Source of the DNA: Bacteroidota bacterium
GTDB taxonomy: Bacteria; Bacteroidota; Ignavibacteria; UBA10030
Length of the DNA stretch: 64,000 nt
Direction: 5' to 3'
Assembly (NCBI GenBank): GCA_050013655.1
Contig: JBEKEV010000004.1
Coordinates: forward strand, 88,407-152,406
Shown: in pieces, positions 2,743-27,027 of the stretch
Layout of the letters: each line of letters opens with the position of its first letter
Numbering within the stretch: the first letter of the stretch is position 1
Position numbers and translations under genes: made by a program
Notes under the pieces: model-generated
What the model saw: only the letters and a program-made list of their open reading frames with translations
Told to the model about the DNA's origin: nothing
The model's database searches: none

Positions 2743-3888
2743 TTACGCGAATAATAAGTTCTCGACATACCGCGCAATTGCCGGCGAGGATGTTAATCCC
2801 GGCGATTCGATTCCAATCAGATTGACAAATCCGGACAAGCCGCGATCTTTCTCGTGAACGATAACAAAGTCGCGCGGGGGTTGTCCTTTCCTTTGAAGCT
2901 TTGGACGAATACCGCTCATATCCGGCGTGATATCTTCATCAGTGATGCTTGGTAAAATTCGGCGAATCGATTCTGCAAACGCATGCCGCTTGTTCTCTGC
3001 CACGCTATAGTCGGGCGTGCGGTCCTCAAGATATTCTAAATCAGGACCAAACTTCAACCTTCCGCCCAAATCCATGAGCGCATGTATGCCAAGTTCTTCG
3101 TTGGCCGGCATGGGATACACCAACCGCGATATAAGCTTTGCTTTGGATTGTGTGATTGAAAAGTACGAACCTTTTGCATAACTCAACCGCAAATCTTCTT
3201 TATCGATATCGATGCCGATCATCTGTGCGATGAGATCAGAACCAAGTCCAGCCGCATTGATGACGATCTCGGTTGTAACGCTTGATCTGCTTCCTGCTTC
3301 ATCGTAAACAATTTCATATCCACTCATAATCTGCCGAATGCCGGTAACTTGACACCGATGCTGAACTGTCCCGCCATTTGTTTGCGTCGTATGGAAAAAG
3401 TAATCCATCAGATCATGAGCGCTGATAATGCCGGTGAGCGGTGAGAACAGCGCGCCTTCCGTTCGAATGTTCGGTTCCAGTTTCAGCGCCGCTGTTTTAT
3501 CCAGAACCTGTAATTTCACTCCATTCTTTGCTGCGTTCTGCTGAATACTGTCGAGCTTTGTCAATTCCGTTAAAGTCGTCGCGGTGATCAGTTTTGTCAA
3601 CGGTTTATAAGCGATATCGTGTGCTTTGCAGAGAGCGTACAATTCATCCCTTCCTTCAACACATAAACGCGCCTTCAACGAGCCAGGTTCATAGTATATG
3701 CCTGCGTGTATCACCTCACTGTTGCGGCTCGATGTTTCCATTCCATACTTTTCATTTTTTTCTAGAAGAACAAGATTTGGATGTTGTTCAGAAAGACGCG
3801 CCGCAATTGCAAGTCCAACCACACCTGCACCAATTATTGCAATTTCAAAATCTGCCATAGAAATATCTTCCCCGTTACAATAGGACAA
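2743..3888 (-). CDS. lhgO: FAD-dependent oxidoreductase, L-2-hydroxyglutarate oxidase/dehydrogenase-like
   Basis: IAIIGAGVVGLAIA dinucleotide-binding motif. LLEK...SSRNSEVIHAGIYYEPGSLKARLC aligns well with E. coli LhgO as recalled. The true start is probably the Met at MADFEIAII. Confidence 0.65.
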   Translation of the reverse strand: MSYCNGEDISMADFEIAIIGAGVVGLAIAARLSEQHPNLVLLEKNEKYGMETSSRNSEVIHAGIYYEPGSLKARLCVEGRDELYALCKAHDIAYKPLTKLITATTLTELTKLDSIQQNAAKNGVKLQVLDKTAALKLEPNIRTEGALFSPLTGIISAHDLMDYFFHTTQTNGGTVQHRCQVTGIRQIMSGYEIVYDEAGSRSSVTTEIVINAAGLGSDLIAQMIGIDIDKEDLRLSYAKGSYFSITQSKAKLISRLVYPMPANEELGIHALMDLGGRLKFGPDLEYLEDRTPDYSVAENKRHAFAESIRRILPSITDEDITPDMSGIRPKLQRKGQPPRDFVIVHEKDRGLSGFVNLIGIESPGLTSSPAIARYVENLLFA

Positions 3889-3980: not shown

Positions 3981-4463
3981 ATGGAACCAACGAACGAAAT
4001 TCCTTTGCTGCTTCATCTTATCGATGAAGCCTACACGAAACAGGCATGGCATGGAACCAACCTGCATGGATCTATTAACGGCTTGACCGCACAACAAGCG
4101 GCATGGCGTCCCGCGCCAACTCGGCACAATATTTGGGAGATTGTTGTGCATGCGGCATATTGGAAGTACATCGTCCGCAGACGGCTGCTTGGAGAAAAGA
4201 AAGGTTCTTTTCCTTTGAAAGGGAGCAATTGGATCAAACGCCCTCTCGAGATGACTGAGAAAGCCTGGCGTGAAGATATCCACCTGCTGGATGAAATGCA
4301 TCGGTCGATGTGCGAAGCAATTGTTTTACTTAAACCATCAAATCTCAACCGAAAACCTGCCGGCAGTAAGGTCTCCAATGCATTTATCATTTCAGGAATT
4401 GCCTGCCACGATGTTTATCATACCGGACAAATACAATTGCTTAAACGATTGATGAAGCAATGA
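3981..4463 (+). CDS. DinB/YfiT-like family protein
   Basis: Size around 160 aa, and the His-containing four-helix pattern (HLIDEAY...WHG...HAAYW...HTGQI) is typical of the DinB_2 superfamily. Confidence 0.5.
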   Translation: MEPTNEIPLLLHLIDEAYTKQAWHGTNLHGSINGLTAQQAAWRPAPTRHNIWEIVVHAAYWKYIVRRRLLGEKKGSFPLKGSNWIKRPLEMTEKAWREDIHLLDEMHRSMCEAIVLLKPSNLNRKPAGSKVSNAFIISGIACHDVYHTGQIQLLKRLMKQ

Positions 4464-5680
4464 GTGACAATCCATCTTTTCGAAAACCAATCTGGCAAAA
4501 AACTTTTGCGGCGCTGAAACATAGGAATTACCGTCTCTGGTTCTGGGGGCAAATGGTATCGTTATTCGGCACGTGGATGCAAACAACTGCCCAGGGGTTT
4601 CTTATTTATCAAGTGACACATTCTTCGGCATATCTTGGGTATGTGGGATTTGCTTACGGCGTTCCTTCGTGGTTTCTTATGCTCTACGGTGGAGTTGTTG
4701 CAGATCGCGTTTCAAGGCGCAAGCTCCTCATCATTACACAATCCGTCATGATGATCCTCGCATTTGTTCTCGCAGCACTTGTATTCACCGACACTGTTCA
4801 AGCGTGGCATATTCTTTTGTTGGCATTCGGCCTGGGATCTGCCAACGCTTTTGATGCGCCGGCACGTCAAGCATTTGTCTCAGAAATGGTGGATCGTGAA
4901 GATTTAACAAACGCCGTTGCGCTCAATGCAACAATGTTTAACACCGCTCTTATCGTTGGTCCGGCAATTGCCGGCGTAATTTATGCCGCTTTCGGACCGG
5001 GGTGGTGTTTTGCTGTCAACGGAATATCATTCATTGCTGTCATCATCGCGCTGGCATCGATGCATTTTCTGCCGGGCACAGAAACTTCACAACATAGTTC
5101 AACACTCTCTGCATTAAAGGAAGGGATTAATTATGTACGTCATCAACCGATCATTCGTGCGCTCATTGGATTGGTTGCAACAACAAGTTTATTCGGCATG
5201 TCCTTAGGAACATTACTCCCGGCATGGTCGGTGAAAATACTCCACGGGAACGCAGCGACAAACGGCCTTCTCTTTTCTGCTCGCGGTGTCGGTTCTCTTT
5301 TTGGAGCATTGACTATAGCTACCTTCGGGAGATCTCATGTCCGTGGTAAATTTATTACGTTCGGCTCCCTCTGCTTCCCCATTTTTATTACTTTCTTTGC
5401 AATAACATATTGGCTGCCGCTCTCGCTGCTCTTCATGGTCTTTGTCGGCACAGCTATGATATTTGTAGTTAATTTTTCTAATGCCACCATACAATCGATT
5501 GTACCCGACTCATTGAGAGGACGTGTTATGGGTGTGTACACCACGATCTTCATGGGATCGATGCCGCTTGGTGCACTTTTGCTCGGAACTATCGCAGAAC
5601 ATGCCGGTGAAGCAGAAGCGGCTCTTTTTATTGCATGCCTCATATGGTTTTTGATACCCAAGGTACGAACGATAGAATAG
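4460..5680 (+). CDS. MFS transporter
   Basis: About 12 predicted TM segments with MFS-type GxxxDRxGRR-like loops (VVADRVSRRKLL); 406 aa. Confidence 0.8.
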   Translation: MSDNPSFRKPIWQKTFAALKHRNYRLWFWGQMVSLFGTWMQTTAQGFLIYQVTHSSAYLGYVGFAYGVPSWFLMLYGGVVADRVSRRKLLIITQSVMMILAFVLAALVFTDTVQAWHILLLAFGLGSANAFDAPARQAFVSEMVDREDLTNAVALNATMFNTALIVGPAIAGVIYAAFGPGWCFAVNGISFIAVIIALASMHFLPGTETSQHSSTLSALKEGINYVRHQPIIRALIGLVATTSLFGMSLGTLLPAWSVKILHGNAATNGLLFSARGVGSLFGALTIATFGRSHVRGKFITFGSLCFPIFITFFAITYWLPLSLLFMVFVGTAMIFVVNFSNATIQSIVPDSLRGRVMGVYTTIFMGSMPLGALLLGTIAEHAGEAEAALFIACLIWFLIPKVRTIE

Positions 5681-18810: not shown

Positions 18811-19383
18811 ATGCAAAAGATATTATCACTGGTGCTCATTGTACTGTTGGTCACTTTCGCCGGGTGTAAAAAAGACTCCAGCAGTAGTCCCACAAATCCA
18901 ATTACTCCAGCCAGCAATCTCTACGGTTCTGGATCGTTATCATTCACTGCAGGCTCGCTCGGGAATCTTAGTTTTAGCGGATCATGGACCGGCGCTTCTG
19001 TCGGAAGCACTGGTACCGCAGTGGAAGCGTTGACCGGAAAAAGCGGCTCGGATTATGGTGCGATTATTTATGGATATACTTGGCATAGCTCTACCAGTTG
19101 GGATAATGCTATGGTTGATATCGCGACCACTGGAACTCCAATAACTACCGGTACCTACACAACCAACGACGGACTTACATTCTTGTTTACAAAAGGAAGC
19201 ACATCAAACACCGATTATTCGAACGAGTACATGCTGACAACTGGTTCATGTCAATTAACGAGTTATTCTTCAAGCGGGATGAAAGGAACATTCAGTGGTA
19301 CTGCAACGAAATTATCAGACCAAACTACGGTTTCCATCACAACTGGTTCTTTTGATGTAACATTTGGAACCACAGGAATGTAA
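18811..19383 (+). CDS. Ser/Thr/Gly-rich lipoprotein, hypothetical
   Basis: Signal peptide with a lipobox (LVTFAGC) and a low-complexity S/T/G-rich body; a very AT-rich upstream region lies at 18650-18810. Confidence 0.55.
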   Translation: MQKILSLVLIVLLVTFAGCKKDSSSSPTNPITPASNLYGSGSLSFTAGSLGNLSFSGSWTGASVGSTGTAVEALTGKSGSDYGAIIYGYTWHSSTSWDNAMVDIATTGTPITTGTYTTNDGLTFLFTKGSTSNTDYSNEYMLTTGSCQLTSYSSSGMKGTFSGTATKLSDQTTVSITTGSFDVTFGTTGM

Positions 19384-19419
19384 AAAAACCAAACTGTTTA
19401 TAATTTTCTTTTTGAAAAA

Positions 19420-19454
19420 CACCAACGCTCAAAATGAACGATGGTGTTTTTTTT
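19420..19454 (+). terminator. Intrinsic terminator after the 18811-19383 lipoprotein gene
   Basis: CACCAACG-loop-CGATGGTG (8 bp stem, one mismatch) followed by T8. Confidence 0.5.
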
Positions 19455-19729
19455 AGGTGAGAATTGAGTGAAATAACCAGGACATAATTTTAGAAAAACC
19501 TTTATAATAATGAGCCGGATGTGAAAGCACCCAGCTTTTTTTATTGTACACATTCTAACACTCTACTCACTGCTTTGAAATCATTGGAGACGGGATAATC
19601 CGAAGTTATCGAGCAGAATGGAAAGCAGATCAATCCGGACAAGAATGGTATTATCAAGCAGACGGTATAACAATCATCACCCACAATACTTGGGTCAAGA
19701 GCTAACGTGTCAAAATATTGAATTTTAGA

Positions 19730-19759
19730 GGTCGGATGCTTCGGTGTCTGACCTTTTTT
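19730..19759 (+). terminator. Plus-strand hairpin with a T-run at the end of an ORF-free stretch
   Basis: GGTCGGAtgcttcggtgTCTGACC followed by TTTTTTA. The minus-strand reading of the same hairpin lacks a U-run. Confidence 0.45.
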
Positions 19760-20372
19760 ATTTCTCTAATCTCTTAAAAATCACATAGAGGTCGCCATAT
19801 TTGATGGGTTTTGTATATCCATTGATGGCGAGATCCTCTATGGACTTGTATATATTCTCCGGATACATGTTAATATTTACTTCTCCAAGAATTCCTTTCA
19901 TTTCACGCGACGGATCGACAGAATACCGCATTGCCAACTCACCAAAATCATGTCCATGCTCTATCGCTTCATAAACCGAATCAGATTCTTCCGGTGTAGT
20001 ACACAATATTTCTGCAAGATTCATAATTTGTAATTTCGCATAGCGTACTTTAGTTCGCAGGTGAAACCATGTACTGATCGGTTGGTTCTCTGTGCGGGCA
20101 GGAGTAAAACGCCACTGCTTAATTGATGCTATAGCAAGTGAATCCCACGAAGCATCGTCGCTGCCTTTGAGAAGCCGGGCTTTACTCACTGATCCATCTT
20201 CCAGTATAAACAGCACTACATCTAAATCGAAAGATAATCGGGAGAATGATTCTGGAATCGGGGGAAGCGGGTGCTTCAAGAGCAACTGTGGAACCGATCC
20301 ATCTGAAGTCTGCTCCATCGACGAACAACCTACAAAGCACACAATGCAGAGTAAAAATATCGCGAGTCTCAT
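19758..20372 (-). CDS. Lipoprotein with a TonB-C-like domain fused to a PpiC/parvulin-type peptidyl-prolyl isomerase domain
   Basis: Lipobox FVGCSS. DLDVVLFILEDGSVSKARLLKGSDDASWDSLAIASIKQWRFTPA matches the TonB_C pattern. The C-terminus (FGELAMRYSVDPS..GILGEV..GDLYVIF) matches the rotamase pattern. Confidence 0.5.
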   Translation of the reverse strand: MRLAIFLLCIVCFVGCSSMEQTSDGSVPQLLLKHPLPPIPESFSRLSFDLDVVLFILEDGSVSKARLLKGSDDASWDSLAIASIKQWRFTPARTENQPISTWFHLRTKVRYAKLQIMNLAEILCTTPEESDSVYEAIEHGHDFGELAMRYSVDPSREMKGILGEVNINMYPENIYKSIEDLAINGYTKPIKYGDLYVIFKRLEK

Positions 20373-20680
20373 GATATACCTCCTATAGTAATTGTGTTGA
20401 AATTAAAATAATAACTTTACGATATAAATTTCTTGGATCACCTAAAAATATTGTACTCAGTTTTCCTTAAAATCTCAAGAAATATTCGGTACGATAAACC
20501 GGATATCACCGGTTTAAGTTGTTAGCACGTAAATAATAAAAATGGATATTTTTATTATGAACTCCTTATGCAATTTGTAATGTACTCTTGTGCTTTCCTG
20601 ACAGTGACGACTTGAGAGCATTAGCAGGAATAATACTCAGTTTTTTATCCGTCGTACATGAGGTTTTGTGCTTATGAATA

Positions 20681-21034
20681 TTACTTTGGAATTACCTGGA
20701 ATATTTTAAGAATTGGAAGAAGAATTTTTACGGCGAATATACTCAGAATAGAACCAACGAGGAACAAGATGATCCCCACTATCGCCCACCGTTTTTGCAC
20801 CCGTTGAAACTGTTCAATGCTTTTCCAGTGTTTATTTTGCCAAGCCCATTCATTCCCTTTGAATCCTAATACAAATGCCATGAGAATCCCAAAAACCGGA
20901 ATAACGCAGAGCAGCGCAATATATGTCCTGTTGAACAATCCCCATAATGCATTAAGAAAAAAGGCGCCCCAGTTCCATGTTTGAATTTCTGAAGGAACGT
21001 CAGAATCTTTTCCTTGTCCTGATGTGTTTTCCAT
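20681..21034 (-). CDS. Small inner-membrane protein, DUF2628-like
   Basis: WNWGAFFLNALWGLFNRTY resembles the DUF2628 signature as recalled; one further TM segment. Confidence 0.45.
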   Translation of the reverse strand: MENTSGQGKDSDVPSEIQTWNWGAFFLNALWGLFNRTYIALLCVIPVFGILMAFVLGFKGNEWAWQNKHWKSIEQFQRVQKRWAIVGIILFLVGSILSIFAVKILLPILKIFQVIPK

Positions 21035-21126
21035 ACAAGAATTCTATTTTCCTGATGACGAGATGCCTACAATCAACTACGGAAAAATGGATTACTGGTT
21101 TCTAATTCCAGTGTCGAAATGGTAGA

Positions 21127-21168
21127 GATTTTTTAGCCAAAACACAACCGCCGATGACCTGAGAGCAC
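21127..21168 (-). repeat. Conserved intergenic motif, copy 1, upstream of the 20681-21034 gene
   Basis: GTGCTCTCAGGTCATCGGC-N6-GTTTTGGCTAAAAAATC in minus-strand orientation. There is an 18/18 nt identical core with copy 2, about 100-145 nt upstream of the start codon. Confidence 0.6.
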
Positions 21169-21212
21169 CTAAACTGTGAGGAGAATGAATCTGGAGGAGA
21201 TTAATTTCCTTT

Positions 21213-21611
21213 TTACTTCGGTTTTTCCAGTAACTTCAATTTTGATTCTATAATCATCAGTAGTACCATTATCCCACCGAAAGACAACATGACATACTTT
21301 ATGAATGAATTTTCAATAATTGAATTCTTTAGTTTCTCGATATGAAAGAGTATCTCATGAGGCATACCGATCAGCCGAATAGTTAATTCAAAAATATTCA
21401 GACCTGAAAGCCACAGAACAAGGAAGATGAGACTATCAACCGCGACGAAGACGAGAAAACACAAGAGAATATTTTCCAGAACGCGCTGCTTGCGGCTTTC
21501 ACGCAGAATTTTCTTCATCGTCGTCACGTTGAAATCCGGATCGGTTATTTCCAGATAACTACTCTTCAGGATATCTTTTGCGAGCTTGTCAATATTTGAA
21601 TTCTTCATCAT
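21213..21611 (-). CDS. Two-TM membrane protein, putative anti-sigma factor (assigned by position)
   Basis: Overlaps the ECF sigma gene stop by 4 nt. It has a cytoplasmic N-terminal segment followed by two TM helices and no ZAS (HxxxCxxC) motif. Confidence 0.4.
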   Translation of the reverse strand: MMKNSNIDKLAKDILKSSYLEITDPDFNVTTMKKILRESRKQRVLENILLCFLVFVAVDSLIFLVLWLSGLNIFELTIRLIGMPHEILFHIEKLKNSIIENSFIKYVMLSFGGIMVLLMIIESKLKLLEKPK

Positions 21612-22171
21612 AGGAGAGATTGAATTTCCGACTTCAGGTTTCTATTTAAGATTTTATACATTTTATTTCTTGCCCTGTGCAATTTCATTTTCACGTTTTC
21701 CTGAGCAATGCCCGTTATTTCCGTAATTTCGTCAATGGAATTTTCATTTAAATAATACAGCGTCAGAAGTAACCGGTTTTCGATGCTCAATTCTTCCAGT
21801 GCAAGATGGACGAACTTTTTCTGATCCGACAAATCCAGACTGCTATACGCCGATTCTACGCTTTCTACGACGACGTCGGTAATATCCTCTTCATCTATAC
21901 TGCTTAACTCCGGTCTTTTATTCCTTGCTCTCGACAACGAGCTGTTCACCACAATCCTGTAAAACCACGTAGAAAATTTCGAGTCTTTCCTGAATTTATC
22001 AAGCGACCTGAATGCTTTCAGAAATGCATCCTGAACGATCTCTTCTGCATCTTCTCTGTTATTGACAATTCGAAACGCTATGGAGAAAGCCATACCTTTA
22101 TATTTCTCGATAAAATAAGAAAATTTAGATGTGTTTCCTTCAAGAACCAGTTTTAAATACAGATCGTCCAT
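21608..22171 (-). CDS. ECF-type RNA polymerase sigma factor (sigma-70 family, group 4)
   Basis: Region 2 (EEIVQDAFLKAFRSLDKFRKDSKFSTWFYRIVVN) and region 4 (ENSIDEITEITGIAQENVKMKLHRARNKM). Confidence 0.9.
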   Translation of the reverse strand: MDDLYLKLVLEGNTSKFSYFIEKYKGMAFSIAFRIVNNREDAEEIVQDAFLKAFRSLDKFRKDSKFSTWFYRIVVNSSLSRARNKRPELSSIDEEDITDVVVESVESAYSSLDLSDQKKFVHLALEELSIENRLLLTLYYLNENSIDEITEITGIAQENVKMKLHRARNKMYKILNRNLKSEIQSLL

Positions 22172-22173
22172 TA

Positions 22174-22545
22174 CTACTGGGCAGATTTCGTCTCGGTTTT
22201 CTTTCTATACACATAATAGCCAATTAATCCGAGACCGCCAAATAGAAGCGCCATAATCGGCATTATAATTTCTTGTCGCATTGGAGTATAGACAGAGAAA
22301 ATGTACCCCAAAAGCAATCCAAGTCCGATTCCGCCTATAAGCATTCCCCACAGTAGGACTTTATGGAAAGTGGTTTCTTCTTTTATAAAAATCGAAGCGT
22401 CTATTCCCTTTTCAATCAAAGCCATTCTCTCTTTGTGTTTTGCTTTCCGGCTAAAGTAGTAAATCAGTACAACTAAGGCGGGCGGCGCTCCAAAAATAAG
22501 GATGATGGCTAACATTCCTGTTAATATTGCCAGTACGTCTTGCAT
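22174..22545 (-). CDS. Small membrane protein (2+2 TM) immediately upstream of the ECF sigma gene and probably co-transcribed
   Basis: A hydrophobic N-terminus, then a charged amphipathic loop (KERMALIEKGIDASIF), then two TM helices and a basic tail; a 2-nt gap to the sigma gene. Confidence 0.6.
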   Translation of the reverse strand: MQDVLAILTGMLAIILIFGAPPALVVLIYYFSRKAKHKERMALIEKGIDASIFIKEETTFHKVLLWGMLIGGIGLGLLLGYIFSVYTPMRQEIIMPIMALLFGGLGLIGYYVYRKKTETKSAQ

Positions 22546-22663
22546 TTTATTCTCCTGTCATATGTTTGTGTGTGTTATTGAGTATTCCGTTCACATTATA
22601 TATGACTACAAGAAATGAATTTAGGTAACAGGATCGAGTGAAAATTTTGTATAAATAATCGAA

Positions 22664-22706
22664 GATTTTTTTAGCTAAACCGCAGTTGCCGATGACCTGA
22701 GAGCAC
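22664..22706 (-). repeat. Conserved intergenic motif, copy 2, upstream of the 22174-22545 sigma operon
   Basis: GTGCTCTCAGGTCATCGGC-N6-GGTTTAGCTAAAAAAATC in minus-strand orientation. Confidence 0.6.
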
Positions 22707-22748
22707 GGGCGAGGCGTAATAACATAAAGAAAGAGATCTCTTTCGGTT

Positions 22749-23141
22749 CTATTCACCGCCGAATACCGACACTAACAATTGTGTTGCAAAGGTTATTACA
22801 TACCAATGCACGATAACGAATGTTCCAATCACAAGAGCAAAAACAACGACACGCACGGCAGTCATGCCTTTTAATTCCTCGAAGAATCTCTGAAAAAGAG
22901 CGAAAGGCGTAAATAAGCCAACTAAAATCCATATCACGATGGAAACAGAGAAATAGAGGAAAAAATACGCATTAAATTCTTCTAAATCTAAATGTAAGAG
23001 TATGGCAACCATATACCCAAGGAGAACTAACAATAAACCGAGGAGTGCACAAAGAAACATCGCCCCAAATCTCAAAAATTTAGTTCCGAATGAAGTTAAT
23101 TGTTCCGACTCTTCAGGAGGTTCTATTTGTAAGTCTGCCAT
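22749..23141 (-). CDS. Membrane protein (3-4 TM), hypothetical
   Basis: Hydrophobic segments. The likely start is the MADLQIEPPEE Met, 11 codons inside the track ORF. Confidence 0.5.
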   Translation of the reverse strand: MADLQIEPPEESEQLTSFGTKFLRFGAMFLCALLGLLLVLLGYMVAILLHLDLEEFNAYFFLYFSVSIVIWILVGLFTPFALFQRFFEELKGMTAVRVVVFALVIGTFVIVHWYVITFATQLLVSVFGGE

Positions 23142-23272
23142 ATGCGTTCCCTTCAATGATGATGAAGTACCCAAGGAGTAAATCTATACTTCTTTAGACG
23201 TATAGACTTTCTGTGATGGATATTGGTATTATGAAGCATAATGGAGATAAATTGATTTAATTACAATAGAAT

Positions 23273-23300
23273 GGCAACTAAAAAAACAAACGCCGATGAT
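23273..23300 (-). repeat. Conserved intergenic motif, degenerate copy 3, upstream of the 22749-23141 gene
   Basis: ATCATCGGCGTTTGTTTTTTTAGTTGCC (minus-strand orientation) aligns with the GTCATCGGCGGTTGTGTTTTGGCTAAAA region of copy 1. An upstream ATTACG...CGCC segment is also shared with copy 2. Confidence 0.4.
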
Positions 23301-23484
23301 GTTGCCACCACCGGCGTCCGTCGTAATTTTACTTTCTGTTTTTACTTCCCCCGCTACTCATTGCCTCACCTATTTGTTGTGAATATCTTTTCCTCTAAGT
23401 TATACCCGCAAGCTTTTGGCGGGTATCCAGCCTTAAGCTAATTTCTGGATTCCCGACAGAAGCACTCGGGAATGACGACAAAAA

Positions 23485-26253
23485 TTACGAACACCCGCTC
23501 GTGCTTCCACATTCCAAGCATTTGTAGCACGAGCCGCTTCTAATCATAATACTTCCGCATTCGTGGCACGGAGGCGCGTCGGATTGGGTCTCAAATACAA
23601 GCTTCTCGTTCTTCTCCCACACCGAAGCGGCTTTTGTCGCAGCGGCGTTAAGAATCCCAACCGGTTTCCTTGCGGTCTCTTCCGAAATTTTCACGTCGCT
23701 GACTTCATTATTCGTATTTGTCGTACCGTTCTCTTCTTTGATAAATTTCTTGCCGAGCCAGCGGAAAATGTAATCGCTTACAGATTTCGCAATCGGGATA
23801 TCCGGATTGTTCGTGAAGCCGGACGGCTCATAGCGCGCATGACTGAACTTATCCACCATCACCTTCAACGGTACGCCGTATTGCAGTGCAATCGAAATCG
23901 ATGTGGCAAGTGAATCCATCAAGCCGGAAATAGTGGAACCCTCCTTGGACATCGTGATGAATAACTCGCCCGGTGTTCCGTCTTCAAACATCCCGACAGT
24001 AATGTAGCCCTCGTGCCCGGCAATACTGAACTTGTGCGTAATGGATTGGCGCTCGTCCTGCAAGTGACGGCGTGCAGGTTTGTTGGTCGTCGCCTGTTTT
24101 TCTTTTTTCTTGTCGAGCGATGTGCTGAGCGGCTGTGTGCGCTTGCATCCGTCGCGGTACACGGCAATGGCTTTCAACCCGAGCTTCCACGCTTCGGTAT
24201 ATGCTTGCATAATATCTTCAGCGGTCACATCGGTCGGCATGTTTACCGTTTTGGAAATCGCGCCAGAGAGGTACGGCTGTGCTGCCGCCATCATCTTGAT
24301 ATGCCCCATATAGTGAATGGAGCGCTTGCCGTTTGCCGGTTTGAATGCGCAGTCGAATACCGAAAGATGTTCTTCTTTCAGATGCGGTGCGCCTTCGATG
24401 GTATCGTTCTTATCGATGTGTGCAATAATGTGCTCGATCTGTTCGCCGTCGTATCCTAACTTCGTGAGCGCTTCCGGTACGGTTTGGTTGACGATCTTCA
24501 TCAACCCGCCACCGCTCATTTTCTTGTACTTCACCAAAGCAATGTCCGGTTCAATGCCCGTGGTATCGCAATCCATCATGAAACCGATCGTGCCGGTCGG
24601 GGCAAGAACGGTTGTCTGCGAGTTGCGGATGCCGTGCATTTGTCCTAACTCAACAACATCCTTCCATACATTGCGCTGTGCTTCCCAGAGACCGGGTTCC
24701 ACTGCATTTTTGTCGATGCGTTCTGCATGAATACCATGTTTCGCCATCACATTCAACATCGGATCCCTATTCGCTGCAAATCCGCTGAATGGTCCCTGCG
24801 CTTCGGCAATCTTTGCAGATTGTTTGTACGCTTCGCCGCACAGGAGAGAGGTGATAGCAGCGGTAAGCGTTCTGCCTTCGTCGCTGTCGTACGCAACACC
24901 GCGGGACATCAGCAGCGCGCCGAGGTTTGCGTACCCGAGTCCGAGCGGACGATAGTCGTGACTGTTTTGCGTGATCGCCGGTGTCGGGTAACTCGAATTA
25001 TCGACGGACATTTCCATTGCGGTAATCGTGATCTGAATGGCTTTCTGAAACGCTTCCACATCGATATCGCCGTTCGCTCTGCGGAACTTCATCAGGTTCA
25101 GCGATGCAAGGTTGCATGCGCTGTCATCGAGGAACATGTACTCGCTGCATGGATTCGACGAATGGATGGGCGCCGTACTGGAGCAGGTGTGCCAGTTGTT
25201 GATTGTCGTATGGAATTGGATACCGGGATCGCCGCAGATCCAAGCCGCATCGGCAATTTGTTTCATCAGATCGCGCGCCCGGAATTTTTCCAACGGCATT
25301 CCGCCTTTTACGGCTTTGGTCCAGAATTCTTTATCCTCTAGAACGGCTTTCATAAATTCATCGCTCACGCGAATGGAGTGATTGGCGTTCTGATAAAAAA
25401 TAGAATCGTACGCGCCGCCGGGCACATTGAAGCCGCCGTCATAGCCCGCGTCGATGAGCGCCCATGCTTTTTTCTCCTCTTCCGCTTTACAGTTGATGAA
25501 GCTGACAATATCCGGATGTTCGACATTCAAAATCACCATCTTTGCCGCGCGGCGTGTCTTCCCTCCGGATTTAATAACGCCCGCAAACGCATCGTACCCT
25601 TTCATGAACGAGACCGGCCCGGACGCAGTACCGCCGCCGGTGATACGTTCCTTGGAGGAGCGAAGTGTGGAAAGATTGGAACCCGTGCCCGAACCATACT
25701 TAAAGAGCATACCTTCCGTCTTCGCCAGCTCCAGAATGGAGGACATTGAATCTTTAACTGAATTGATAAAGCATGCGGAACACTGCGGCATTTTTTCCAC
25801 GCCGACGTTGAACCAGACCGGGCTGTTGAACGACATATATTGGTTGACGAGAAGATACAGTAACTCGTAATAAAATATTTCTGCATCTTCTTCCGATGCG
25901 AAATAACCGTCTTTCAATCCCCATGTATAGTACGATTTGGCAACACGATCGACAAGCTGCCGTATGCTCGTTTCGCGTTCTGCTGTCCCTACTTGACCAT
26001 AGAAGTATTTCGAGACAACAACATTGGTTGCTGTCATCGACCATGATTTTGGAATTTCGACATCTTTTTGTTCAAAGATTTTTTCCCCTCGATCGTTCGA
26101 GATCGTAGCAGTGCGCCGCTCCCATTCAACTTCATCGAAGGGGTGCACGCCTCGTTTCGTAAAGAATCTTTCGAAACGTAATCCCCGTTTCACAGTTTCG
26201 TTTTCGTGTGTACGGGAATCAATTTGGGCGGTGGGGGACTGCACATTTTGCAT
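23485..26253 (-). CDS. nrdJ: Class II adenosylcobalamin-dependent ribonucleotide reductase (NrdJ)
   Basis: 922 aa counted from MQNVQSP. It has the RNR barrel motifs (CSEYMFLDDSACNLASLNLMKF) and a C-terminal CxxC...CxxC zinc ribbon. The many antisense ORFs in the track are spurious. Confidence 0.85.
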   Translation of the reverse strand: MQNVQSPTAQIDSRTHENETVKRGLRFERFFTKRGVHPFDEVEWERRTATISNDRGEKIFEQKDVEIPKSWSMTATNVVVSKYFYGQVGTAERETSIRQLVDRVAKSYYTWGLKDGYFASEEDAEIFYYELLYLLVNQYMSFNSPVWFNVGVEKMPQCSACFINSVKDSMSSILELAKTEGMLFKYGSGTGSNLSTLRSSKERITGGGTASGPVSFMKGYDAFAGVIKSGGKTRRAAKMVILNVEHPDIVSFINCKAEEEKKAWALIDAGYDGGFNVPGGAYDSIFYQNANHSIRVSDEFMKAVLEDKEFWTKAVKGGMPLEKFRARDLMKQIADAAWICGDPGIQFHTTINNWHTCSSTAPIHSSNPCSEYMFLDDSACNLASLNLMKFRRANGDIDVEAFQKAIQITITAMEMSVDNSSYPTPAITQNSHDYRPLGLGYANLGALLMSRGVAYDSDEGRTLTAAITSLLCGEAYKQSAKIAEAQGPFSGFAANRDPMLNVMAKHGIHAERIDKNAVEPGLWEAQRNVWKDVVELGQMHGIRNSQTTVLAPTGTIGFMMDCDTTGIEPDIALVKYKKMSGGGLMKIVNQTVPEALTKLGYDGEQIEHIIAHIDKNDTIEGAPHLKEEHLSVFDCAFKPANGKRSIHYMGHIKMMAAAQPYLSGAISKTVNMPTDVTAEDIMQAYTEAWKLGLKAIAVYRDGCKRTQPLSTSLDKKKEKQATTNKPARRHLQDERQSITHKFSIAGHEGYITVGMFEDGTPGELFITMSKEGSTISGLMDSLATSISIALQYGVPLKVMVDKFSHARYEPSGFTNNPDIPIAKSVSDYIFRWLGKKFIKEENGTTNTNNEVSDVKISEETARKPVGILNAAATKAASVWEKNEKLVFETQSDAPPCHECGSIMIRSGSCYKCLECGSTSGCS

Positions 26254-26482
26254 ATGGTACTCCTTGCTTAAAAAGTGTGGTGCAATACAAAAGCTTACAA
26301 CCAACGAATAATAGATACGTCTTACGACGGTTGGGATAATTTGATTTCAATTTCCAGAAATAATATTGATGATAAAAAATGGGCGGCCGTTGCGCGCCAC
26401 ATTTATTCTCCTCTTTTACAACTCCAAACTTACAGAAACCTCTAACCCTTCCTCTTTCTTTTTGGCGTCGCAACTGGTTGTA

Positions 26483-26511
26483 AATATATTCTGTTACAGT
26501 CCCTTTGTCAA
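26483..26511 (-). promoter_or_regulatory. Candidate promoter for nrdJ (TTGACA-N17-TATATT on the minus strand), about 225 nt upstream of the start codon
   Basis: Perfect -35 and near-consensus -10 hexamers with a 17 nt spacer. The -10 lies in an AT palindrome-like ACAGAATATATTTACA that partly resembles an NrdR box. Confidence 0.4.
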
Positions 26512-27027
26512 GTTAATAATTAAGTGTTTTTTGAGAGGCTAAACACATAAAAAAATCACTTGACACAAAAAACATTTATTCCTGATGAGCCAAGCTTGAA
26601 CTCATTATATTTTTGACATCTCTCATACCTCTTCAGTACATCCGACTGTAAGAATCCATCACATAAAATAAACAAATCAGATTTCTCTTTTTTTTATTTC
26701 GCAAAAAAAATATTTTACACTCTCCACCATCTTCTCTCCTCAAGAAAGAGAGAAAGGAGTGGTGATAATTACTCTGGATCCATAATAATGAATCATTAAA
26801 AATGAAAGAATAAATAACTTCTAACAACCTGAGTAGTTAACACTTCCGATCTCGAAAAAGTTCTCCCTCTCATCGAGATGTCTATGTCCAGCTAAAAATT
26901 CTTTAGGAGAAAATGATGGTCTCCCCACGAATGCTTCGGAAAATTATATCCTTTGCGATGAAACCTAAAGGAAGGTAAAAAAAACCGATTGTCTGTACTG
27001 TAAAGATAGACGAAATCCGATGAAAAA

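Follow-up and report, generated by a model that had tools for sequence, protein, structure and literature searches.

RsiW, the anti-sigma factor of SigW in Bacillus subtilis, is a membrane protein of the zinc-binding anti-sigma (ZAS) type, which is inactivated by regulated intramembrane proteolysis. In the SigW-RsiW, the SigE-RseA and the SigE-ChrR complexes, helix alpha4' of the anti-sigma domain contacts the sigma2 domain, and CnrY was shown to inhibit CnrH with the equivalents of helices alpha3' and alpha4' alone (PMC5358783). In Bacteroidetes, the RpoE-like extracytoplasmic function (ECF) sigma factors of group ECF03, which occur mainly in this phylum, are described as lacking a conserved or recognised anti-sigma factor, and a class I anti-sigma domain accompanies only 6% of the Bacteroidetes ECF sigma factors (PMC7406223). 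Here, we describe an ECF sigma locus in 64,000 nucleotides (nt) of DNA from a Bacteroidota bacterium (assembly GCA_050013655.1, contig JBEKEV010000004.1, positions 88,407 to 152,406; the window hereafter). The locus encodes a small membrane protein of the family DUF6249, the sigma factor and a protein with two transmembrane (TM) segments, which is a putative anti-sigma factor. Such three-gene ECF sigma modules are found widely across Bacteroidota, Ignavibacteriota and Kryptoniota, and the present locus is an ordinary example of them.

Similar sets of genes have been described in two other contexts. In Porphyromonas gingivalis the genes PG1662, encoding a DUF6249 protein, PG1661, PG1660 and PG1659 are consecutive and co-regulated (PMC12094164, PMC4222909), and mutants are sensitive to H2O2 (PMC9862357). 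A reduced gingipain activity and an altered minimal inhibitory concentration of ampicillin were described as further phenotypes of this probable counterpart. Judging by the title of a study by Dou et al. from 2021, PG1659 is reportedly the anti-sigma factor of PG1660. In Bacteroides fragilis and Bacteroides, genes for DUF5056, DUF6249 and a sigma factor are conserved neighbours next to clsB (bioRxiv 10.1101/2025.05.12.653583).

A conserved unit of three genes

An earlier note, made from the sequence of the window alone, had described a compact ECF sigma operon surrounded by further small membrane proteins. Its five open reading frames (ORFs), all on the minus strand and spanning 20681-23174, are present in the ORF list at the coordinates that it gave. 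The DUF6249 stop codon is separated from the sigma start codon by a gap of 2 nt, and the sigma stop codon overlaps with the ATG of the following gene by 4 nt (ATGA). The features that make up the conserved part of the locus are the following, with protein lengths in amino acids (aa):

22604-22629, minus strand: predicted ECF-type promoter, GTTACC-N14-GTAGTC; single match of the motif in 64 kb
22174-22545, minus strand: DUF6249 gene, 123 aa, first gene of the operon; assigned by Pfam PF19762, alignment and AlphaFold2 (AF2) model
21608-22171, minus strand: ECF (group IV) sigma gene, 187 aa, RpoE/SigW-like; assigned by Sigma70_r2, Sigma70_r4_2 and TIGR02937
21213-21611, minus strand: putative membrane anti-sigma gene, 132 aa, two TM segments; assigned by a family hidden Markov model (HMM) and a profile match to RsiW alpha4'

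The middle gene had been read as an ECF sigma factor, and its domains agree with this. Pfam assigns Sigma70_r2 to residues 20-86 (E=3.6e-18) and Sigma70_r4_2 to residues 122-171 (E=5e-10), and a protein of 187 aa that contains only the sigma2 and the sigma4 domains corresponds to the definition of ECF (group IV) factors, i.e., these domains alone in approximately 170-200 aa. Among the NCBIfam models, the generic ECF model TIGR02937 matches with 106 bits (cut-off 42.9), no equivalog model passes its threshold, and the GFO_1088/PG0214 sigma model stays below its cut-off in every sigma factor tested. The best match in the Protein Data Bank (PDB) is SigW (5wuq_A, E=3.2e-22); SigW and RpoE are the best relatives.

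The distribution of the module was assessed by a scan with the DUF6249 alignment across one genome per GTDB species, which returned at least 600 pattern matches and at least 554 confirmed DUF6249 loci; 80 of these were kept, on which the synteny counts are based. They span Flavobacteriaceae, Cytophagales, Chitinophagaceae, Bacteroidales, Ignavibacteriota, Kryptoniota and metagenome-assembled genomes (MAGs) labelled Chlorobiota. Of the 80 loci, 69 have an ECF sigma gene homologous to that of the window as the direct neighbour of DUF6249, and the sigma gene is always followed by a two-TM gene that is likewise homologous. The three genes are co-directional in the order DUF6249, sigma, two-TM in 15 loci (L004-L014, L073 and, from Bacteroidales, L046, L050 and L057), and in 54 loci the sigma and the two-TM genes are divergent from DUF6249 across 50-300 bp. 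Two TM segments within 100-180 aa are encoded in every case by the ORF 3' of the sigma gene. An HMM built by iteration from the 132-aa family of the window takes 71 of the 73 post-sigma ORFs that were picked; in the remaining two loci (L010, L016) it matches the correct ORF instead of the picked one. Nothing else among 3146 ORFs is matched, the best unrelated ORF having E=0.14. Overlapping or nearly abutting genes are the usual arrangement of sigma/anti-sigma pairs, and here the sigma gene and the two-TM ORF overlap or lie at most 5 nt apart in 62 of the 69 loci, with an overlap of exactly 4 nt in 29.

Clustering of all ORFs across the loci yielded no fourth conserved family, and homologues of the two flanking membrane proteins of the window occur only in two close relatives, L007 and L011, at other positions, those of the 141-aa protein not being adjacent to the module; therefore, the conserved unit consists of three genes. 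For these core genes, the idea is thus upheld that the ECF sigma factor and its non-ZAS membrane partner form a self-contained unit in which no sensor domain can be recognised. The earlier note had also allowed for random juxtaposition or for well-characterised membrane protein families, yet the synteny is conserved and the families found are not well characterised.

Loci identical or nearly identical to that of the window come from metagenome contigs of peat and fen, and also from MAGs that bear the label Bacteroidota or Ignavibacteriota. The DUF6249 locus L031 (JAKISW010000039.1) belongs to a MAG labelled Devosiaceae (Alphaproteobacteria), and P0080 carries the label Acidoferrales; mis-binning of both contigs is more probable than a real occurrence beyond the Fibrobacteres-Chlorobi-Bacteroidetes (FCB) group.

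The two-TM protein as a putative anti-sigma factor

The 132-aa protein consists of an N-terminal two-helix segment with the motif TDPDFNVTTMKKIL, a first TM segment (TM1) at approximately residues 48-66, a loop of approximately 35 aa and a second TM segment (TM2) at approximately residues 103-121. Pfam and NCBIfam searches gave no match to it, including zf-HC2, ZAS, RskA and other anti-sigma models, and residues 1-50 contain no histidine or cysteine, i.e., the H-x3-C-x2-C zinc motif is missing before TM1. Moreover, the cytoplasmic part of approximately 45 aa does not hold the four-helix domain of class I anti-sigma factors (an alpha1-alpha3 bundle followed by alpha4); in the AF2 model, which has a predicted local distance difference test (pLDDT) score of 72, only the helices 5-22 and 25-68 precede or enter TM1. 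The description of the sigma partner as a two-TM protein without ZAS or RskA-type signatures is therefore correct, but the protein is not featureless since it keeps a helix of the RsiW alpha4' type.

This helix carries the family motif P-[SA]-x-D-F-[TS]-x-x-V-M-x-x-I in the cytoplasmic segment, which is present in a single copy in most members. A search of the 177,635 PDB sequences with a 35-column profile of this N-terminal motif resulted in one significant match (E=0.0056), i.e., residues 56-76 of RsiW (5wuq_C, HVEAPADFTANVMAKLPKEKK), and in the crystal structure of SigW-RsiW these residues form helix alpha4' of the anti-sigma domain. As SigW is also the best solved relative of the sigma factor, the match makes biological sense. 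From these data the 132-aa protein is best read as a minimal, zinc-free, class-II-like (CnrY-like) membrane anti-sigma factor that would bind the sigma factor by its short cytoplasmic segment.

Several points weigh against this assignment. The match to RsiW is short, comprising 21 residues at the E-value given above, the subfamily of the window has a degenerate motif in which N and T replace T and V, and neither a narrow profile of the 132-aa family nor the AF2 model gives any match in the PDB. CnrY itself is matched neither in sequence nor in fold (profile and model against the PDB), though the two-helix, zinc-free and membrane-anchored layout fits.

Alternatively, the 132-aa protein might be a mere co-transcribed membrane effector, with the sigma factor being controlled by transcription or by an unlinked anti-sigma factor. 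Such a situation would fit with the lack of a match to any anti-sigma model, and with the description of ECF03 as a group without a conserved anti-sigma factor and the low share, 6%, of class I domains among Bacteroidetes ECF sigma factors, as given in PMC7406223. However, the two-TM gene directly follows the sigma gene in all cases, with overlapping stop and start codons, and the protein has a conserved N-terminal cytoplasmic helix that matches RsiW alpha4'; furthermore, PG1659 at the same position in P. gingivalis is named an anti-sigma factor in the title of a publication. We regard the effector explanation as quite unlikely and prefer the minimal membrane anti-sigma factor.

The family is hardly covered by existing models. 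NCBIfam holds no specific model for the two-TM family or for the trio, and a broad protein search with the family-wide alignment returned 54 entries, all of them annotated as "hypothetical protein" and none from P. gingivalis or Bacteroides. DUF5056 (PF16479) gave no match at E<=1 for the protein of the window and 10 diverse family members; it is matched by 4 of 80 subfamily relatives of the 132-aa protein (best E=3e-6), which indicates that the relationship between the two families is a distant one and not membership.

Two further observations concern the architecture of the family. In many Flavobacteriaceae (L017, L019, L021, L024, L041, L047, L054, L058) two tandem copies of the helix motif, approximately 35 aa apart, precede TM1, which suggests an internal duplication of a putative sigma-binding element. 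In L010, from a Kryptoniota MAG, a fused ORF of 269 aa at 4372-5181 had the appearance of a natural sigma/anti-sigma fusion; this was rejected, as the fusion results from an in-frame deletion, by which sigma region 4.2 and the first approximately seven residues of the anti-sigma protein are lost. The fused ORF must be a pseudogene or else an artefact of the assembly.

A predicted ECF-type promoter

Alignment of the upstream regions of DUF6249 in the co-directional clade revealed the sharply conserved element GTTACC-N14-GTAGTCATATA. In the window, the predicted promoter consists of GTTACC as -35 element, a spacer of 14 nt and GTAGTC as -10 element, and ends 58 nt before the DUF6249 ATG. The pattern GTTAC-N13-17-GTAGTC has one match in the 64 kb, at 22604-22629, with 0.02 expected by chance, and L001-L012 and L073 each contain the motif once, in the corresponding position.

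The divergent loci carry the related element GTAACC-N15-18-GTC (usually CGTC) in both directions. It is directed toward DUF6249 in 53 of the 54 loci, ending 30-50 nt before the ATG, and toward the sigma gene in 51 of 54, ending approximately 10 nt before the sigma ATG. Both orientations occur together in 51 of the 54 divergent intergenic regions, compared to 0.66 of 54 in shuffled sequences. Overall, the motif was found upstream of 76 of 81 DUF6249 genes but in only 23 of 1370 control windows. Its architecture, with an AAC-type -35 and a CGTC-type -10 element, is that of ECF promoters, and its position upstream of the sigma factor's own operon is the one expected for autoregulation, as judged from sequence. 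In the simplest reading, the sigma factor would transcribe both its own operon and DUF6249, the latter being the only target that never varies.

In the divergent loci L015-L083, the -10 element directed toward the sigma gene ends approximately 10 nt before the start codon in most cases, and the DUF6249 leader has 30-50 nt; the sigma mRNA is probably leaderless or nearly so in these loci. A separate DUF6249 subfamily (L084-L089) has no adjacent sigma gene and lies in another conserved setting, flanked by genes for a beta-eliminating lyase and a uridine kinase. Since these orphan genes keep the promoter, in the form TTTGTAACC-N14-15-CGTCATAAC, at a distance of approximately 40 nt from the ATG, a sigma factor of the same type would control them in trans.

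The DUF6249 protein

The 123-aa protein encoded by the first gene of the operon matches the Pfam family DUF6249 (PF19762) with E=2.9e-18 and 66.2 bits (cut-off 33) over 103 of 104 profile positions, and PF19762 is present in all 106 of its 106 homologues. The 123-aa protein thus belongs to a described Pfam family, though that family itself is of unassigned function. The sequence KERMALIEKG, which had been regarded as an unusual amphipathic loop, turned out to be the signature of DUF6249: in the family alignment R40, L43 and I44 are invariant, and K38, E39, E45, K46 and G47 are conserved to at least 90%.

The AF2 model of the protein (pLDDT 77) has helices at residues 2-45, 50-56, 58-86 and 91-122. 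Instead of the two plus two TM segments proposed from the sequence alone, the alignment and the model indicate three TM helices and an amphipathic KERMALIEKG helix on the cytoplasmic side, where it is placed because the positive-inside rule predicts this location. The TM helices are rich in glycine zippers, and few residues are exposed outside of the membrane. The DUF6249 profile has no meaningful match in the PDB, and a weak match to the TM region of RseC/MucC (E=0.12) is at the level of chance. DUF6249 might be either a membrane-stress effector or a feedback modulator, as the zipper-type TM helices together with the cytoplasmic helix fit both roles.

It is conceivable that DUF6249, rather than the two-TM protein, is the real anti-sigma factor, a sensor or an obligatory co-anti-sigma factor, with its KERMALIEKG helix contacting the sigma or the anti-sigma factor; this would make the system a genuine three-component switch, similar to the SigM-YhdL-YhdK and the RpoE-RseA-RseC systems. 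Its linkage to the sigma gene almost everywhere, its position as first gene of the operon in the window, the weak resemblance to RseC/MucC and the finding that conservation is highest in an amphipathic helix on the cytoplasmic side would agree with such a role. However, DUF6249 is unlinked in L084-L089 or divergent in other loci, whereas the two-TM gene is always coupled to the sigma gene; the RsiW alpha4' motif resides in the two-TM protein and not in DUF6249, and a PDB relative that could lend DUF6249 such a function was not detected with its profile. DUF6249 acting in this way is therefore unlikely, and the assignment of the two-TM protein as the putative anti-sigma factor is kept in the following.

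Proposed mechanism

We consider it likely that the three genes form a module in which the two-TM anti-sigma factor holds the sigma factor, and in which the freed sigma factor transcribes DUF6249, sigma and anti-sigma genes. The gene families, their synteny, the promoter motif and the likeness to the RsiW helix are observed, while we infer the binding, the signal, the proteolysis and the role of DUF6249. By translational coupling, the two-TM protein would be made in a fixed proportion with the sigma factor. It would tether the sigma factor at the inner membrane by its short, zinc-free cytoplasmic segment, in which the RsiW-alpha4'-like helix around PDFNVTTMKKIL comes after a helix formed by residues 5-22. 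Some perturbation of the membrane or the envelope would then inactivate the anti-sigma factor, most likely by proteolysis in analogy to RsiW and RseA; a conformational change is the alternative. Sensing probably takes place in or at the membrane or via generic proteases, as for RsiW and RseA, because both membrane proteins expose little outside of it (a loop of approximately 35 aa in the anti-sigma factor and few residues in DUF6249). The freed sigma factor would bind GTTACC-N14-GTAGTC at 22604-22629 and transcribe the DUF6249, sigma and anti-sigma genes together, which would result in positive autoregulation and in negative feedback via the anti-sigma factor.

As a more speculative extension, DUF6249 might be an obligatory third part of a hitherto undescribed three-part membrane-stress switch, next to the ECF sigma factor and a minimal two-TM anti-sigma factor that has the alpha4'-type helix alone, in which the KERMALIEKG helix modulates the stability of the anti-sigma factor or the release of the sigma factor. 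This we regard as possible but doubtful. If true, the RpoE-like sigma factors of Bacteroidetes, which were described without an anti-sigma factor, would have in such a switch the regulator that they seemed to lack.

Neighbouring genes and the 40-nt intergenic repeat

The remaining features of the region lie outside of the conserved module:

22749-23141, minus strand: neighbouring gene, 130 aa; 3-4 TM helices, without family assignment
22667-22706, minus strand: 40-nt intergenic repeat, copy 1; 85% identical to copy 2
21129-21168, minus strand: 40-nt intergenic repeat, copy 2, between the anti-sigma gene and the 117-aa gene; 85% identical to copy 1
20681-21034, minus strand: neighbouring gene for a 117-aa membrane protein; sub-threshold MpPF26 match only

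For the upstream gene, the longest ORF (22749-23174) encodes 141 aa from a TTG. The ORF and its 3-4 TM helices stand as described in the earlier note, but the start codon was re-called to the ATG at 23141, in line with the Joint Genome Institute (JGI) call of 130 aa. Neither the 141-aa nor the 117-aa protein has anything above threshold in Pfam or NCBIfam. The label "DUF2628-like" for the 117-aa protein has to be dropped: DUF2628 gave no match at E<=1, and the only hit, MpPF26, reaches 25.9 bits compared to a cut-off of 37.2.

The 40-nt repeat (GTGCTCTCAGGTCATCGGC...GCTAAAAAA) has the consensus GTGCTCTCAG(G/C/A)TCATCGGCG-TTGTGTTTTGGCTAAAAAA, and the two copies listed are the only ones in the 64 kb. 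Each copy lies 70-200 nt upstream of a gene on the same strand, in the window the DUF6249 operon and the 117-aa gene; copy 1 is located 38-77 nt upstream of the -35 element of the promoter. Related copies in the close relative L011 (at approximately 1440-1490, 2880-2925 and 3790-3835) precede a beta-lactamase-like gene, a nitroreductase-like gene and DUF6249. The repeat is absent from most orthologous loci. The shared upstream motif of the initial description exists as a repeat, but it occurs in close relatives only and differs from the conserved promoter. Two explanations for the repeat were rejected. As an RNA element, it has a folding energy no better than that of shuffled sequences, and no Rfam match above threshold was found in 19300-27000; as a known promoter it does not fit, by eye, the sigma-70, the sigma-54 or the Bacteroidetes sigma-A consensus. 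It may represent the site of a genus-specific regulator or an intergenic repeat, in either case outside of the conserved module.

These data bear on the possibility that the locus is an island of five genes, including the 141-aa and the 117-aa flanks, which is co-ordinated by the 40-nt motif. The repeat does precede both the operon and the 117-aa gene, L007 and L011 have homologues of both flanking genes at a distance of a few kb from the module, and copies of the repeat exist in L011. However, the flanking genes are absent elsewhere and their order differs in L007 and L011, a fourth conserved family is lacking, and in L011 the repeat precedes the unrelated beta-lactamase-like and nitroreductase-like genes. 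Moreover, neither flank carries the sigma promoter: no convincing further copy was found in the 64-kb window, and the 141-aa and the 117-aa genes lack it, so that nothing ties them to the regulon. A five-gene island is thus very unlikely, and the unit of five genes suggested from the sequence alone reduces to the three-gene module, the flanking genes being neighbours by local and recent synteny only.

Further observations concern the surroundings of the module. The 141-aa gene has, just 3' of its stop codon, a perfect palindrome of 16 nt (GAAAGAGATCTCTTTC, 22729-22744, minus strand) that is followed by TTTATGTT. It represents a weak terminator-like hairpin that would part the 141-aa gene from the sigma operon, although the terminator scan did not call this palindrome, whose stem contains few G-C pairs. 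Upstream, the stretch 23485-26304 (minus strand) encodes a ribonucleotide reductase of class II (B12-type), which contains a TSCPD domain, with a strong terminator-like hairpin at 23285-23322, 3' of the gene. The GC content is 51.6% at 24001-26000, compared to 39-41% in the adjacent sigma module.

Comparison with known systems

Bacteroidota encode very many ECF sigma factors, of which few have a recognisable anti-sigma factor. The present analysis offers several leads here: the gene following the sigma gene belongs to one two-TM family that escapes detection by Pfam and NCBIfam across its range, with few members reaching DUF5056; this family keeps an RsiW alpha4'-type helix; and DUF6249, preceded by a clear promoter consensus, is the invariant gene of the predicted sigma regulon. 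This results in an annotation rule for hundreds of genomes, including those of gut Bacteroides and P. gingivalis. Furthermore, the GTAACC-N15-18-GTC promoter can serve as a simple reporter for finding the inducing stress. Modules of an ECF sigma factor and a membrane anti-sigma factor are already known as a kind, and the module has probably been studied in part before.

The closest likeness is to SigW-RsiW of B. subtilis. SigW is the closest solved relative of the sigma factor, the helix of the partner matches RsiW alpha4', and in both systems the anti-sigma factor is membrane-anchored, is encoded directly after the sigma factor and belongs to an autoregulated operon, as predicted here from the promoter. 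The 132-aa partner differs from RsiW by lacking the zinc-binding CHCC motif and the alpha1'-alpha3' bundle and by having two TM segments with an outside loop of approximately 35 aa, whereas RsiW has one TM segment and an extracytoplasmic domain; in addition, a DUF6249 gene is attached here.

With CnrH-CnrY of Cupriavidus metallidurans the module would share a small, membrane-anchored partner that inhibits the sigma factor by a short zinc-free two-helix cytoplasmic segment, equivalent to RsiW alpha3'-alpha4' (PMC5358783). CnrY, in contrast, has one TM segment and partners the periplasmic sensor CnrX; the present module has no such partner, and similarity in sequence between the 132-aa protein and CnrY was not detected. 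In the rpoE-rseABC operon of Escherichia coli and in sigM-yhdL-yhdK of B. subtilis a small multi-TM protein likewise accompanies the sigma and the anti-sigma factor. However, homology does not extend beyond the chance-level RseC match (E=0.12), and the small protein is encoded here upstream of or divergently from the sigma gene with its own sigma-type promoter.

Within Bacteroidota, the DUF5056-DUF6249-sigma neighbourhood of Bacteroides represents the same trio at the level of annotation, with the difference that the 132-aa protein of the window itself has no match to DUF5056. In P. gingivalis the gene order is also alike, with PG1662 (DUF6249), PG1660 (ECF sigma factor, RpoE) and PG1659 downstream, but PG1661, as an additional small ORF, and a MacAB-like efflux cluster next to these genes set the locus apart. 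PG1662-PG1659 is probably the experimentally studied member of the same module, the link of PG1659 to the 132-aa family being a positional one.

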